Assembly (NCBI GenBank): GCA_036657515.1
Contig: JAVXGI010000004.1
Coordinates: 1-62,441 of the forward strand
Reading direction: 5' to 3'
DNA: 62,441 nt
From: Bacilli bacterium
Lineage (GTDB): Bacteria; Bacillota_I; Bacilli_A; RFN20; CAG-826
The position numbers and the translations under genes are program-made. The notes beneath the pieces were generated by a model. The model was not told the origin of the DNA and did not search any database. It saw only the letters and a list, made by a program, of their open reading frames with translations. How positions within the stretch are numbered: the stretch's first letter is position 1; each line of letters starts with the position of its first letter. Positions 55,293 through 62,441 of this stretch are shown piece by piece.

Positions 55293-56690
55293 TTAGATAG
55301 AATTTTTAACTTTTAAATATTCATCAAAATTATGATCTTTAAGATCTTTTAACTCAGTAAACTTATATTTGCCATTACATTTTATAAAAGTATTACGTAA
55401 ATCAATATCGTAGTAGTTTCTTTTTATAATTTCTTCACCAATTTTAATAATTTTACAATATGATTCAAAATATTCTAATTCAATAGTTCCACATAAATAC
55501 ATTGCTAAGAAAAACAAATATTTTTTAAATTCACAAAGACCTGATTCATTTTTAAATTCATATTGCAAAACATAACAATCAGATCCGCAAATATTTCTCG
55601 ATATACAATTTTCACATTTAGTAGAAGGATTAGAAAAATATATATTATTAATATTATTTTCAATTTGAGCTTTAGTTATTTCCAATTCCTTATGTGTTAC
55701 TGCTGGAATGCAAGGAAATATTGCTCCATCTATACCAAGAGCAAAACGAGCTATGCCAGCATCACATCTTCTAGATAAAATAGAATTTGACATAATTTTT
55801 AAAATAATATTTCCAAAGTAATCATCGCCATTAATTATGCTTAATAAAGGTTGCAAATTATTATTTTTAATCTCCGAAATAAGATAGTCTACAAATTTAG
55901 AGTATCCGTCTTCAATAAAAGAAAAATCAAAATCTTTATAAGAAATTCGAGCTGGACGAATAGAAACTGTTTTAAATAGAGATAGCATTTCAAAATATGC
56001 TTTAAATATATCAGTATTTTGGTTAGAAATCGTCATTCCTCCACCAACATATTCATTATTTCTAATTAATTTAATATTATTTACGACTTTATCATAAGTA
56101 CCTAAATTGTTAATATCGACTCTATTAATATCATGTAATTCCTTATAACCATCTAGAGAAACTCCAAATAAAATATTATTTTTTTGTAATAATTCAGTAT
56201 ATTCCTCACTTAATAGGGTTCCATTCGTAGAAAGCATGACTGTTAATTCTTTTCCAATCTTATTACTAACTTCTTTACAATATTTTGATATTTCTAATAT
56301 ATCTTTTAAATAAAGCAAAGGTTCTCCAGAACCAGACATATCAACAAAATAACGTTCTGCTTCATTTTTGACTTCAACAACATAATTAATAAAGTCTTTA
56401 ATTTGATTAATTTCTAATTTTTTGCTAACTTTATTCTCATTAAAACAATATTTGCATCTTAAATTACAATTTGAAGTAATATTAATACAAATCAATATCT
56501 TAGGATAAAAACAATCATCTTTTTTAACTTCAAAAAAATCATTTGCTTTAAAAAAAGAATTTTTATAATTTATAAACTTATTTAGAATATTAACTGTTTT
56601 ACCATTATTTAAATTATAATATGCTACAAAATTATCAAATTCGATTTTAGCAATGTTGCTATTACAATCTAAGGATAATGTTTTTTTCAT
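55293..56690 (-). CDS. Radical SAM enzyme with complete SPASM domain (peptide/protein maturase-like)
   Basis: CNLRCKYC (CX3CX2C), then CDAGIARFALGIDGAIFPC (C-X12-G-X4-C), CENCISRNICGSDC (CX2CX5CX3C) and a final Cys (GLCEF). ATG at 56690 has AAGGTGA upstream and overlaps the preceding gene by 29 nt. Confidence 0.85.
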   Translation of the reverse strand: MKKTLSLDCNSNIAKIEFDNFVAYYNLNNGKTVNILNKFINYKNSFFKANDFFEVKKDDCFYPKILICINITSNCNLRCKYCFNENKVSKKLEINQIKDFINYVVEVKNEAERYFVDMSGSGEPLLYLKDILEISKYCKEVSNKIGKELTVMLSTNGTLLSEEYTELLQKNNILFGVSLDGYKELHDINRVDINNLGTYDKVVNNIKLIRNNEYVGGGMTISNQNTDIFKAYFEMLSLFKTVSIRPARISYKDFDFSFIEDGYSKFVDYLISEIKNNNLQPLLSIINGDDYFGNIILKIMSNSILSRRCDAGIARFALGIDGAIFPCIPAVTHKELEITKAQIENNINNIYFSNPSTKCENCISRNICGSDCYVLQYEFKNESGLCEFKKYLFFLAMYLCGTIELEYFESYCKIIKIGEEIIKRNYYDIDLRNTFIKCNGKYKFTELKDLKDHNFDEYLKVKNSI

Positions 56691-57447
56691 ACAAATCACC
56701 TTCAACATTAACAAAATCGAAATAGCCATTGCGAACATTTACATAAACTTTTGTATAATAATCGTTAAAATTGATATTGGCGAATTTATAAACAAAATCT
56801 CCAAAATTATCATTAAATATATAATCACTTTTTACAAATAAACCTTCAATTTTCTTAATTGTAGTAATAGTAATTGTACATTTTGCATTATTTAAAAGTC
56901 TTCCATCTAAATTATCACATTTAAGAACTAAATTATAACTTTTCGTCTGTTCATTAAAAAATAAATCTTTACTAGTCATTTTTACCGGAACGCCCATAAA
57001 TACTGTTTTAACATTATAGTCATTTGGATCTATAAAATATGAATTAAAGAAATCAATAATAATGGTTGCATCCTCTAGATTTTCCACTAAAGTAGAATCT
57101 AAATTAATCTTTCTAATTCTAAAAGTAAATGGGGCTGGATTACCATCTACAATATCACCTTTTTTAACGATATCGCCATTTTTGAATTTATTACAATTCA
57201 AATCGATTGTTGTTAATGCCATTTTAATCGGTTTATAAAAGTTGCGTTTATTAGAAACGCCGTCTCTATAAACAAAATCTTTGTTAATGAAATAAGTAAG
57301 TGGAGTATATCTACTATCCACCTCAATTGGATTTTCAAAAGTTGCAGAAGCATCTTTAACAGAATATGCATTTATAACCAAAAAAGAAGTCGCAGCCGCA
57401 TAGATTCCTGCAAAAAGTAGTGTGAAATAACAAAGAACTTTTTTCAT
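56662..57447 (-). CDS. Membrane-anchored beta-rich protein, possible periplasmic-adaptor (HlyD/MacA/YknX-like) subunit
   Basis: 261 aa from ATG 57447 (GGAGGA upstream). N-terminal TM, lipoyl-like KFKNGDIVKKGDIVDG, and an adaptor-like C-terminal pattern VNVRNGYFDFVNVEGDLYEKNIIL. The assignment is by pattern only. Confidence 0.4.
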   Translation of the reverse strand: MKKVLCYFTLLFAGIYAAATSFLVINAYSVKDASATFENPIEVDSRYTPLTYFINKDFVYRDGVSNKRNFYKPIKMALTTIDLNCNKFKNGDIVKKGDIVDGNPAPFTFRIRKINLDSTLVENLEDATIIIDFFNSYFIDPNDYNVKTVFMGVPVKMTSKDLFFNEQTKSYNLVLKCDNLDGRLLNNAKCTITITTIKKIEGLFVKSDYIFNDNFGDFVYKFANINFNDYYTKVYVNVRNGYFDFVNVEGDLYEKNIILRL

Positions 57448-57448
57448 A

Positions 57449-60995: not shown

Positions 60996-61676
60996 TCAAC
61001 ATTTCGGAAGTACAGAACCACCAATTGTAGGTCTGACATTTGAAATTACGAGGCTATGAACATCATCAATTGTGTTATAAACATAAACCGCACTAATGAA
61101 TTCATTTTTATCATTTCTTTTAACAATAATCGAATCAATAACAATTTCTTGCATATAAAGATAATATCTACCAGTTGCGTGAGGATTATTGCTATTTTTT
61201 CCACGAAGTGTATTTGTTGAACCATTCGTAAAAGTAACATCATTAGTGACACTAAGTGCCATATCAGCAGAAAAAGAACAAGTTGCACCAAATGCTTTTG
61301 CTTCTGTTGTATAACCAAATCCCTCTGTATAAGTCATACCAATAAGAGTAAAAGTTTGAGTTGTTAAAACAGTATCGCCAAGTTCAGCATTATGAAAAAT
61401 AGAAGAATTTAAAAAATACAATTCGCCATTTTTGCGTGTGTGTCTAACATTGTATCTAGAATAACCGCATTTAGAATTTATGCTATTAACGTTGCAAACT
61501 AATGCTATATTGCCTGATTTTTCGCGTTGATCAAATTCAAATTTTGAAACATTATATTCGTTTTGATTTGCTTTTTTAACATTAGTTAAGTTGTCCGCAG
61601 AAACAAATGGATTAGTTAAACAATTGTCGGAAACAATAAATAATTGTAAAAAAAGCAAACATAATATTTTTTTCAT
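60996..61676 (-). CDS. Secreted beta-rich protein with an amphipathic Ser/Thr/Gly/Ala hairpin segment (aerolysin/ETX-MTX2-like candidate)
   Basis: Signal peptide MKKILCLLFLQLFIV. Residues about 115-151 (TYTEGFGYTTEAKAFGATCSFSADMALSVTNDVTFTN) alternate polar and apolar residues. It resembles the next gene's product in layout. Confidence 0.5.
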   Translation of the reverse strand: MKKILCLLFLQLFIVSDNCLTNPFVSADNLTNVKKANQNEYNVSKFEFDQREKSGNIALVCNVNSINSKCGYSRYNVRHTRKNGELYFLNSSIFHNAELGDTVLTTQTFTLIGMTYTEGFGYTTEAKAFGATCSFSADMALSVTNDVTFTNGSTNTLRGKNSNNPHATGRYYLYMQEIVIDSIIVKRNDKNEFISAVYVYNTIDDVHSLVISNVRPTIGGSVLPKC

Positions 61677-61689
61677 TTCAGTTTTCTCC

Positions 61690-62441
61690 TTAACCTACAA
61701 CGATGTCATAATCCGTTATTGAAATAGAATTTGATAGATAAGCGCAAGCATGATAATTATAAAGTATTCCACCAGCCATAGACCCTCCATTTAAGTTACT
61801 TTCATCCGGCAAATAAACAATCGTTAAAAATTCATAAGATGATACGGTCTTTTTAATCGCATATCTTTCGTTAAGCACCAATGATGATGGATAAAAATCA
61901 TATTTTAATTCAAATGAATATCCAGATCCAATTCCAACAGAAGCACTCATATATTTTTTTACTTCAACAGATGCTTCAAATCCCAATGCTCCTGCTTCTA
62001 CACCTATACCAGCTTCAATAGAAGATGAAATAGAAAAAGTATTCGTTAATTCATACGATTGAAAGATGTTGGTTAATGTTCCGTTGTTAATGTACCCATG
62101 ACTAGTAACTAACGGGAATTTTCCTTTGTAAACAAATGTTGCAACATAATTTTTTCTTGAAGAGCCGTTGTTCGTATTAATAGAATTATAATTTATTAAA
62201 TCATAACTTCTGCCCTCATAAATTGCTGTAGCTCTTATTTGTGGAACTGAAACATACATTTTATCTATCATTGAAATTTGATTATAATAGATTTGATTTG
62301 AATATAATTCCTTGTTGCTTTGATTGCCATTTGAATACTTTAATGAAAATAAAGCACGATTAAGCTCTGTATTTTCTTTTTTTTCATTAACAAGTGAGCA
62401 CGATTGTGCGGAAAACACAAATAATGATAAAAAAATAACAG
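61690..62441 (-). CDS. Secreted or lipid-anchored beta-rich protein, 5'-truncated by the window edge (paralog-like to 60996-61676)
   Basis: The frame stays open to position 62441 (upstream codons read VIFLSLF before VFSAQSC), giving a signal-peptide core. Residues about 125-173 (TNTFSISSSIEAGIGVEAGALGFEASVEVKKYMSASVGIGSGYSFELKY) form two alternating strands around KK. Confidence 0.55.
   Translation of the reverse strand, partial: VIFLSLFVFSAQSCSLVNEKKENTELNRALFSLKYSNGNQSNKELYSNQIYYNQISMIDKMYVSVPQIRATAIYEGRSYDLINYNSINTNNGSSRKNYVATFVYKGKFPLVTSHGYINNGTLTNIFQSYELTNTFSISSSIEAGIGVEAGALGFEASVEVKKYMSASVGIGSGYSFELKYDFYPSSLVLNERYAIKKTVSSYEFLTIVYLPDESNLNGGSMAGGILYNYHACAYLSNSISITDYDIVVG

Follow-up and report, generated by a model that had tools for sequence, protein, structure and literature searches.

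Radical S-adenosylmethionine (radical SAM) enzymes that carry a SPASM domain have been mined almost solely as makers of short modified peptides, and the loci in which no precursor gene is found are usually shelved as 'orphans'. SPASM enzymes that modify proteins are already known, namely the anaerobic sulfatase-maturating enzyme (anSME) and QhpD. The latter cross-links a whole protein subunit, QhpC, which is then exported by the ATP-binding cassette (ABC) transporter QhpF (PMC7876137), and in the darobactin system the radical SAM/SPASM enzyme DarE is paired with an ABC pump, DarBCD, that includes a membrane fusion protein (PMC9055067). Here, we will focus on a group of eight genes that occupies the end of a 62,441-nt contig of an uncultured, gut-type Bacilli bacterium (JAVXGI010000004.1, assembly GCA_036657515.1), which we refer to at its full length as the window. 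These genes, hereafter the cassette, encode two exported proteins (g1 and g2), a lipoprotein (g3), a putative adaptor-like protein (g4), the ATPase and the permease of an ABC pump, a second putative adaptor-like protein (g7) and a radical SAM/SPASM enzyme that we will call rSAM. On balance, we lean towards the view that this is an accessory cassette in which g1 and g2 are the payload, rSAM modifies the terminal cysteine of g2, and g3 and the pump serve for self-protection or release.

A radical SAM/SPASM enzyme with constant neighbours

The initial annotation had recognised a full radical SAM signature together with a seven-cysteine SPASM signature in the last gene of the cassette, and the profile searches agree. 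The protein matches PF04055 with 66.9 bits (cutoff 29.5). Among 19 orthologs, C79 and C82 of the CNLRCKYC motif (residues 75-82) are invariant and C75 is nearly so, while the seven SPASM cysteines (C309, C327, C359, C362, C368, C372 and C386), which are arranged in the C..G-x4-C, CX2CX5CX3C, C pattern, are invariant without exception. The protein also has a beta-rich extension, about 65 residues long, at its N-terminus. The best NCBIfam model is that of the ranthipeptide maturase PapB (NF047865; 163.9 bits against a cutoff of 340). QhpD comes third (TIGR03906; 105.2 bits, cutoff 453), and the SCIFF maturase (TIGR03974; 98.7 bits, cutoff 425) and anSME (TIGR03942; 94.1 bits, cutoff 349) are matched in the same way. 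CcpM is another of the peptide maturases matched by rSAM, and the DarD and DynA models are also found among the NCBIfam matches for the cassette. Among solved structures, the closest is CteB (5wgg, E 1.2e-20), an enzyme that forms thioethers, and anSME (PDB 4k36-4k39) comes second. The nearest characterised relatives of rSAM, CteB in the PDB and PapB, SCIFF and QhpD through their NCBIfam models, form cysteine thioethers.

The same eight genes are found in the same order in this genome (L002) and at L014, L015, L016, L008/L017 (a metagenome-assembled genome, or MAG, of Anaeroplasma bactoclasticum), L009/L019, L018, L029, L030 and L031. This amounts to about ten lineages related to Anaeroplasma and Erysipelotrichaceae, with 41-58% identity between the rSAM proteins of the cassettes. 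In all of them, the 29-nt overlap between g7 and rSAM, or their immediate adjacency, is kept. The flanks, on the other hand, vary: suf genes are found here, and LRR proteins, serS, gyrase, PLD, RNase HII or rpsO elsewhere. The rSAM ortholog thus keeps its neighbours in about ten lineages though the surroundings differ, and it is because of these different flanking genes in each lineage that we consider the cassette an accessory unit. rSAM homologs of 37% identity or less are found in other neighbourhoods.

An accessory origin had initially been suggested on another ground, the AT-richness of the block. The cassette is indeed poorer in GC than the rest of the window, if only slightly (25.9% vs 29.6%), but the difference vanishes at third codon positions, where its GC content equals that of the suf genes. 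Composition alone is therefore no proof of a foreign origin, and we dropped this argument in favour of the variable flanks.

The terminal cysteine of g2

The g2 family is a small one, since HMMER, run exhaustively against 1.84 billion representative proteins, returned 20 relatives only. The alignment of 17 members contains five invariant columns (His95, Gly121, Gly169, Tyr171 and Cys226), the last of which is the final residue of the protein. All full-length members, as well as all 10 cassette orthologs, end in Cys, save two sequences of one sublineage that end in Cys-Gly, and the consensus of the tail is [RK]-P-x(4-6)-[VI]-x-P-x-C. We considered that the terminal Cys could be an artefact of the genetic code, which was ruled out because the stop codon following it is TAA or TAG in 16 of the 19 genes examined.

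Two local peculiarities of these genes can be mentioned. In the window (60977-60998), g2 ends with TGT TGA and the start codon of g3 lies 21 nt further on in the same frame, so that g2 and the lipoprotein would be produced as one fusion if the TGA were read through; the g2 orthologs mostly stop with TAA. At L016 (4969-5651), the g2 ortholog is split into open reading frames (ORFs) of 89 and 133 aa, either by a frameshift or assembly error or because the gene is decaying, and its C-terminal part still ends in ...VLPSC.

Cys-ended exoproteins beside distant rSAM homologs

Fourteen loci carrying distant rSAM homologs (29-37% identity) had originally been fetched as controls. In 11 of these, the gene of the rSAM homolog is adjoined by one encoding a signal-peptide protein whose last residue is a cysteine (Table 1). 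These proteins range from 240 to 759 aa. Two of them belong to DUF6973 and one to Peptidase_S8, and another matches the papain-like Peptidase_C39_2 faintly, below threshold. No homology to g2, or of one to another, is detectable across loci, and we therefore treat them as unrelated cargo. By comparison, a terminal Cys is found in 4 of about 370 other ORFs of the same loci (about 1%), and the binomial probability of at least 11 such loci out of 14, allowing for eight neighbouring genes per locus, is about 4e-10. What is retained beside the distant homologs is the Cys-ended exoprotein and not the ABC pump, and rSAM therefore appears to be tied to the exoprotein rather than to the pump. Most Cys-ended proteins are also accompanied by a small lipoprotein or transmembrane protein; these partners display no detectable homology to g3 or to one another, and no conserved Cys feature in common.

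Table 1. Cys-ended signal-peptide proteins adjoining distant rSAM homologs
Locus	Length	C-terminus	Remarks
L010	398 aa	...KVSKC	
L011	540 aa	...VSPC	
L020	463 aa	...LLSRC	
L021	450 aa	...YPPLC	DUF6973
L022, L023	about 443 aa	...VLVEC	
L024 (Izimaplasma HR2)	759 aa	...FIPPC	
L026	240 and 254 aa	...VYFC, ...VSFC	two proteins
L032	398 aa	...TSGC	
L033	639 aa	...QATC	Peptidase_S8
L034	484 and 305 aa	...ISPC, ...PSSC	two rSAM genes with one protein apiece; 305-aa protein: DUF6973

It is mainly on account of these neighbours that we believe rSAM to act on the terminal Cys of g2. The initial annotation had left a choice between a precursor lying past the window edge and a maturase acting on the co-encoded secreted proteins; the second option draws support from the constant neighbours of rSAM, the invariant terminal Cys of g2 and the Cys-ended exoproteins of the distant loci.

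Among the distant loci, L034 (6001-12372) contains tandem rSAM homologs, each followed by its own Cys-ended protein, and a 115-aa protein upstream of them also ends in ...VASC. At L020 (8464-9864), three tandem and near-identical genes for a 148-aa lipoprotein stand between the 463-aa Cys-ended protein and rSAM; one of the copies ends in ...ICGVCN and the others in ...VRGVRN.

A broader reading, which we put forward tentatively, as a serious possibility rather than a probable one, is that this rSAM/SPASM clade constitutes a general and so far undescribed system of anaerobic Firmicutes and Mollicute-like bacteria, in which Sec-exported proteins of unrelated folds, from pore-former-like proteins and a subtilisin-type protease to DUF6973 proteins and others without a family, would be marked by a Cys as last residue and modified there, through a new radical chemistry, by a dedicated rSAM before export. 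The pairing of a C-terminal tag with an enzyme would follow the same logic as sortase and LPXTG or exosortase and PEP-CTERM, with anchoring, activation or stabilisation as possible roles. The cassette of the window would then be an elaborated version of the system, to which a pump and a second toxin-like component have been added.

Proposed payload, pump and mechanism

The first three products of the cassette had been described as exported proteins belonging to no recognisable family, and this description stands: g1, g2 and g3 each possess a single N-terminal hydrophobic segment according to hydropathy, g3 has the lipobox LISC, and neither these three nor g4 and g7 gave anything significant in Pfam, NCBIfam, PADLOC or PDB profile searches. 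The fold of g2 was approached by modelling. The first AlphaFold2 (AF2) model, built from 5 sequences, was too poor to be used (predicted local distance difference test, pLDDT, of 53), and the Foldseek list obtained with it was not significant. With 17 sequences, the mean pLDDT rises to 68.7, with a core above 90. This model has two 20-residue strands close to the C-terminus and a disordered stretch formed by the last eight residues; the tail is predicted to be flexible because its pLDDT is below 50. The strands 109-128 and 131-149, which form a hairpin where the most beta-amphipathic windows of g2 are located, are modelled with low confidence. When the model was compared to the PDB with Foldseek, aerolysin pore entries occupied ranks 1-5 (E 6e-4 to 8e-3, probability up to 0.75), and parasporin-2, lysenin, LSL, Sip, Dln1 and other beta-pore formers came among the later matches, with probabilities of 0.66-0.75 over the top matches. 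From the model, an aerolysin-type fold is thus probable but unproven for g2.

The complete g1 has a lipobox-like N-terminus (FSAQSC) and no C-terminal Cys, and it has orthologs in 9 other cassettes. It had been called a paralog of g2 in the initial annotation, a relationship that turned out to depend on alignment depth: hhalign gives a probability of 1.3% with shallow alignments, and of 82% (E 1e-5) with the deeper g2 alignment, in which g1 aligns to g2 across the hairpin and the subsequent strands. The two are probably remote paralogs.

The MacB-type exporter that had been proposed for the middle of the cassette is well supported as far as the ATPase and the permease are concerned. The ATPase matches PF00005 (108 bits); its best NCBIfam model is TIGR03608 (215.9 bits against a cutoff of 254.85), and the LolD, DarD, MacB and FtsE models match it at E <=1e-45, below their equivalog cutoffs. 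A lactococcin 972-type system was considered and rejected, as the ATPase remains under the TIGR03608 cutoff and the lactococcin 972 family is not matched. The permease matches PF02687 (FtsX; 40.5 bits, cutoff 25.5), with a partial MacB match, and its hydropathy indicates a MacB-like topology, with a first transmembrane (TM) segment at about 14-38, an outside domain of about 210 aa and TM2-4 as three segments within 251-369. For g4 and g7, the earlier designation as adaptor-like proteins is borne out more faintly. The two align with each other in hhalign (91%, E 1e-6), which makes them, at the sequence level, paralogs. TIGR01730 (RND_mfp) is matched by 4 of 8 g7 orthologs (best E 3.6e-4), always below its cutoff of 94.9 bits, and a CzcB-type adaptor model by 2 of 8; for g4, one of 8 orthologs gives a faint match to the MdtA adaptor and one of 8 a faint match to DUF1430 (E 0.028). 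Pfam HlyD is not matched by either protein, and the PDB profile search found nothing for them. 'Adaptor-like' is thus a reasonable but not proven label.

Elsewhere in the window (25262-29919, minus strand), two large tandem genes occupy another AT-rich patch, of 23-25% GC. They encode proteins of 903 and 649 aa, both of which begin with an ABC ATPase domain, and the first of which has an FtsX permease domain at its end. Both are thus fused, MacB-like transporters, whose ATPase domains are 36-42% identical to that of the cassette.

The mechanism that we propose can be laid out as follows. The payload would consist of g1 and g2, two distantly related, beta-rich exported proteins expected to be membrane-active. 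The cytoplasmic, CteB/PapB-like rSAM would modify Cys226 of g2 once the protein has been translated, while its tail has yet to cross the Sec channel; the extreme C-terminus is the part of the protein that stays longest in the cytoplasm. By homology to CteB, PapB and QhpD, the likeliest chemistry would be a thioether or another sulfur-centred change. Finally, g3 and the MacB-type pump, made of the ATPase, the permease and the two adaptor-like proteins, would either shield the membrane of the producer or release the payload from the membrane surface. The sequences themselves show the gene content, the conserved cassette, the invariant terminal Cys of g2 and the repeated occurrence of Cys-ended exoproteins beside related enzymes at unrelated loci; that Cys226 is the modified site, that the payload forms pores and what the pump does are points that we infer.

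Several observations weigh against this mechanism. The first ones concern the chemistry: the 17-member g2 alignment shows no conserved acceptor close to the terminal Cys, and one g2 sublineage ends in Cys-Gly. In characterised sactipeptides and ranthipeptides, the acceptor is usually located C-terminal to the Cys, which is impossible in g2. A C-terminal Cys bears both a thiol and a carboxylate, and PapB is reported to be tolerant of changes in the orientation and spacing of these two groups (PMC9413430). In addition, g2 carries a Sec-type signal peptide whereas the enzyme is cytoplasmic, so that the order in which modification and export take place is an assumption. Among the distant loci, three of the 14 have no Cys-ended neighbour, namely L025 and L027, which resemble ordinary loci for ribosomally synthesised, post-translationally modified peptides (RiPPs) with C39 exporters, and L028, which is fragmentary. 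L006/L007 keep g3, g4, the ABC genes, g7 and an intact rSAM, with g1 and g2 absent at the locus, so that rSAM may have another or an additional target, such as Cys97 of g3. The aerolysin-like assignment itself comes from a medium-confidence model and borderline Foldseek E-values, with TM-scores of just 0.10-0.20 against aerolysin-type folds. Neither the 17 g2-family members nor 7 g1 orthologs match the Pfam aerolysin or ETX_MTX2 families at E<=10, and a PDB profile search with g1 and g2 was negative for beta-pore-forming toxin families. The beta-amphipathicity of the hairpin does not exceed that of shuffled sequences (92/500 for g1 and 345/500 for g2), and we did not use it as evidence. Finally, all sequences come from MAGs.

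Alternative explanations

The alternative that survives best, though we consider it unlikely, is that rSAM targets g3 through Cys97, or g3 as well as g2, the core of the cassette being g3, the pump and rSAM, and g1/g2 an exchangeable add-on. The N-terminus of g3 reads MIFKKIFLLFISCALISC followed by SS, and its lipobox Cys18 is invariant in 8 orthologs. A second, non-lipobox cysteine, Cys97, is also invariant and lies in a conserved motif, [TK]C[LVI]xxF, which is one of the points in favour of such a target. Others are that g3 is duplicated in this genome, that small lipoproteins or membrane proteins accompany rSAM at most distant loci, and that L006/L007 combine an intact g3 frame and its lipobox with g4, the ABC genes, g7 and rSAM where g1/g2 are missing. 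The distant partner proteins, however, have no relationship to g3 and no conserved Cys feature in common. The single feature found at all loci is the C-terminal Cys of the exoprotein. Moreover, the arrangement of L006, where the g3 frame is open with a lipobox and has no standard start codon, is bracketed by two copies of the ROOL RNA and may therefore be a recent rearrangement, possibly caused by recombination between these copies. L006/L007 could alternatively be a recent remnant, an orphan immunity remnant of the cassette.

The genomic details of these loci are the following. At L006, the genes from g3 to rSAM lie between two full-length ROOL RNAs (RF03087; 213 and 203 bits) at 4736-5287 and 11416-11968, both on the minus strand, and a SAM riboswitch is found just downstream (12100-12189). 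The second g3 copy of the present genome is situated just outside the window (L002 7898-8755) and encodes an 89% identical protein. The duplication includes the g3 gene and about 45 nt of its 3' flank (L002 7894-8802 vs 10696-11603), and places the additional copy 2.8 kb upstream, ahead of g1, where it stands alone behind a 325-nt intergenic region. The first 300 nt of the two copies are 97% identical.

A conventional RiPP locus is, in our opinion, quite improbable. rSAM would there mature a short Cys-containing precursor, either unannotated or located elsewhere in the genome, that the pump would export, while the beta-rich proteins and the lipoprotein would be passengers or immunity factors. 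Some maturases do act on unlinked precursors, and the families that rSAM matches best (PapB, SCIFF and CcpM) consist of peptide maturases. The ATPase is nearest to bacteriocin-export and DarD-type models, the distant homologs of L025 and L027 reside in loci resembling ordinary RiPP loci with C39 exporters, and an rSAM next to an ABC pump is a standard RiPP layout (PMC9055067). Gaps within the cassette do not exceed 59 nt, and the initial annotation had accordingly suggested that a precursor gene might be hidden just beyond the window edge. The identical g2 protein was found on two longer contigs, L001 and L002, both labelled 'MAG: Bacilli bacterium' (GCA_036660515 and GCA_036635675), on which the sequence past position 62441 can be read. 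There, g1 is completed by its first codons, and an AT-rich spacer of 450 nt then leads to the duplicate lipoprotein gene, behind which come divergent unrelated genes. The spacer contains no ORF that has a ribosome-binding site or counterparts in other loci. A 27-aa Cys-containing ORF (L002 9013-9096) was tried as a precursor and discarded, as it is not preceded by a ribosome-binding site and has no counterpart elsewhere. We screened the flanks of 11 cassette loci for small ORFs, and of the 508 collected none is conserved and none is SCIFF-like; in and around the cassette at these 11 loci we found no adjacent short precursor, including one with PapB-type repeated Cys-X3-Asp/Glu motifs. Because the extended contig shows only the start of g1, the spacer and the duplicate lipoprotein gene, and together with the search of small ORFs in the flanks, a precursor just outside the window is refuted. 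Besides this lack of a short ORF with a ribosome-binding site or conservation in or beside the cassette, the RiPP explanation is opposed by the cohesion of the eight genes in about ten lineages despite different flanks, by the recurrence of a Cys-ended exoprotein beside distant homologs where the pump is absent, and by the fact that every peptide-maturase model is matched far under its cutoff.

The weakest explanation, which we regard as highly improbable, is that a MacB/LolCDE-like pump handles surface proteins or lipoproteins, extracting the three exported proteins or positioning them on the cell surface, while rSAM, translationally coupled by chance or for co-regulation, performs another task such as a cofactor or lipid modification: MacB-family pumps do work from the outer face of the membrane, as LolCDE does in lipoprotein extraction, g1 and g3 carry lipoboxes, and rSAM lies directly and terminator-free upstream of the suf genes for Fe-S assembly, but this suf adjacency is unique to the present genome and not kept in the other cassettes, the tight g7-rSAM junction is found in all of them, and the distant homologs have retained the Cys-ended exoprotein instead of the pump.

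Organisation of the cassette in the window

The proposed modification of g2 by rSAM, which we favour over these alternatives, would involve genes that are closely packed (Table 2). The cassette, at 55293-62441, had been presented as eight consecutive ORFs, all on the minus strand, and both the ORFs and the junction lengths are exact. From g1 to rSAM, successive genes are first separated by 13, 18 and 59 nt, then overlap by 8 and 17 nt, and after a gap of 1 nt the last two overlap by 29 nt; these values use the starts backed by gene callers and ortholog alignments for rSAM (56690), g7 (57447) and the ATPase (59237).

Table 2. Features of the cassette, in window coordinates
Feature	Position	Strand	Description
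g1	61690..62441	-	beta-rich exported protein, cut by the window edge; 259 aa when complete (L002 9208-9987)
g2	60996..61676	-	226-aa signal-peptide protein; proposed substrate of rSAM; predicted fold like that of aerolysin-type beta-pore formers
g2 C-terminal tail RPTIGGSVLPKC	60999..61034	-	ends in the invariant Cys226 (codon 60999-61001), with the stop directly after
g2 long Ser/Thr-flanked beta-hairpin, residues 109-149	61230..61352	-	candidate membrane-insertion hairpin
g3	60120..60977	-	285-aa lipoprotein, lipobox LISC, Cys18; candidate immunity or partner protein
g4	59230..60060	-	276 aa, one N-terminal transmembrane segment, the rest beta-rich; g7 paralog by sequence comparison, adaptor-like
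ABC ATPase, MacB/LolD/FtsE type	58578..59237	-	219 aa; PF00005 at 7e-31
FtsX-family permease	57449..58594	-	381 aa; MacB-like topology; PF02687 at 3.4e-10
g7	56662..57447	-	261 aa, one N-terminal transmembrane segment; likely distant periplasmic-adaptor (membrane fusion protein, MFP) homolog; 29-nt overlap of its 3' end with the rSAM start
radical SAM/SPASM enzyme (rSAM)	55293..56690	-	465 aa; CX3CX2C at 56445-56468; seven SPASM Cys within 55533-55766

The absence of a hairpin terminator before the suf promoter, which had been reported earlier, was equally confirmed: the terminator scan of the block gave two matches only, both within coding sequence and no more than shuffled sequences yield. 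The promoter itself is present as a promoter-like site ahead of sufC (55247-55219). The stop codon of rSAM and sufC are separated by about 90 nt (55199-55292), and this short, terminator-free spacer makes it possible that transcription of rSAM continues into the suf operon in this genome. No structured RNA or riboswitch was found in the cassette or in the spacer upstream of it. The possibility of an anti-phage defence system was considered and set aside, since PADLOC returned just a generic ATPase similarity and a similarity to the viperin core.

Novelty and significance

In the open-access literature, we found no description of the cassette, nor of an rSAM tied to C-terminal-Cys exoproteins, aerolysin-like proteins or DUF6973; the mention of radical SAM together with aerolysin and pore-forming toxins that we encountered is unrelated to this system. 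In place of a short peptide, the cassette suggests a full-size secreted protein as the substrate, which would be recognised by the Cys at its final residue, a feature that recurs beside related enzymes in many uncultured anaerobes from gut and sediment. If this is true, it would represent a new protein modification, probably a new radical chemistry, and would supply a sequence rule for spotting the substrates in genomes. It would also link radical SAM maturation to protein toxins and exoenzymes in little-known bacteria such as the relatives of Anaeroplasma. Should the clade-wide reading hold, it would define a new system in which secreted proteins are tagged at the C-terminus.

Comparison with known systems

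In the darobactin and dynobactin systems (darA, darBCD, darE), as in the cassette, an rSAM/SPASM gene is tightly linked to an ABC pump; there, the ATPase and the permease are joined by a membrane fusion protein (PMC9055067), to which the adaptor-like proteins of the cassette may correspond. Those systems begin, however, with a gene for a 58-aa precursor and belong to Gram-negative hosts (PMC9055067), whereas the cassette is precursor-free and contains two adaptor-like genes and, upstream of them, three exported proteins of 226-285 aa.

PapB and CteB (5wgg) are the closest to rSAM in terms of characterised sequences and structures. They share with it the radical SAM core and the seven-cysteine SPASM domain, and both form thioethers from Cys. 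The differences are that the enzyme of the cassette falls below both cutoffs, that no short Cys-rich precursor is found nearby, and that the candidate Cys of g2 is the last residue, which leaves no possible downstream acceptor. CteB also has about 97 residues before the aligned core, to be compared with the extension of about 65 residues in rSAM.

For the putative payload, the reference is the family of aerolysin/ETX-MTX2 toxins, such as aerolysin, parasporin-2, lysenin and the Clostridium perfringens enterotoxin. The model of g2 resembles them by its very long paired strands and its long Ser/Thr-flanked hairpin, and g2 is predicted to be Sec-secreted as they are. It is smaller, with about 190 aa in its mature form, has no receptor-binding domain and no sequence-level match to these toxins, and its TM-scores are very low.

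Lantibiotic self-immunity, with the lipoprotein LanI and the LanFEG transporter, and the YknWXYZ pump of B. subtilis provide no more than an analogy for g3 and the pump of the cassette. A membrane-active secreted product, a part that g1 and g2 would play here, has next to it the genes for a lipoprotein and for an ABC pump equipped with an adaptor, a putative one in the cassette. The duplication of g3 can be seen in the same light, and the lipoprotein and pump that L006/L007 possess without a payload resemble an orphan immunity module. No sequence relationship exists between LanI or LanFEG and the cassette, the permease of which is of the FtsX/MacB type while LanEG is of the ABC-2 type.

The QhpD/QhpC/QhpF system comes nearer to what we propose for rSAM, as it has a SPASM enzyme working on a genuine protein, in which it forms Cys-to-Asp/Glu thioethers, and an export step aided by an ABC transporter of the same operon (PMC7876137). 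Dehydrogenase subunits, the subtilisin-like QhpE and the flavoprotein QhpG are all missing from the cassette, in which the neighbours are unrelated to qhpA/B/C/E and the pump is of the MacB/FtsX type. Moreover, the candidate substrate g2 starts with a Sec-type signal peptide, and its one invariant Cys is found at the extreme C-terminus, where the Qhp system makes use of internal Cys and Asp/Glu pairs.

The last comparison is with anSME. No sulfatase domain is present in the seven neighbours of rSAM, there is no C/S-x-P/A-x-R motif, and the Cys considered in the cassette is C-terminal. The likeness between the two lies in the order of events that we propose for g2, since anSME is a SPASM enzyme that modifies one Cys (or Ser) of a full-length exported protein in the cytoplasm, prior to its export.

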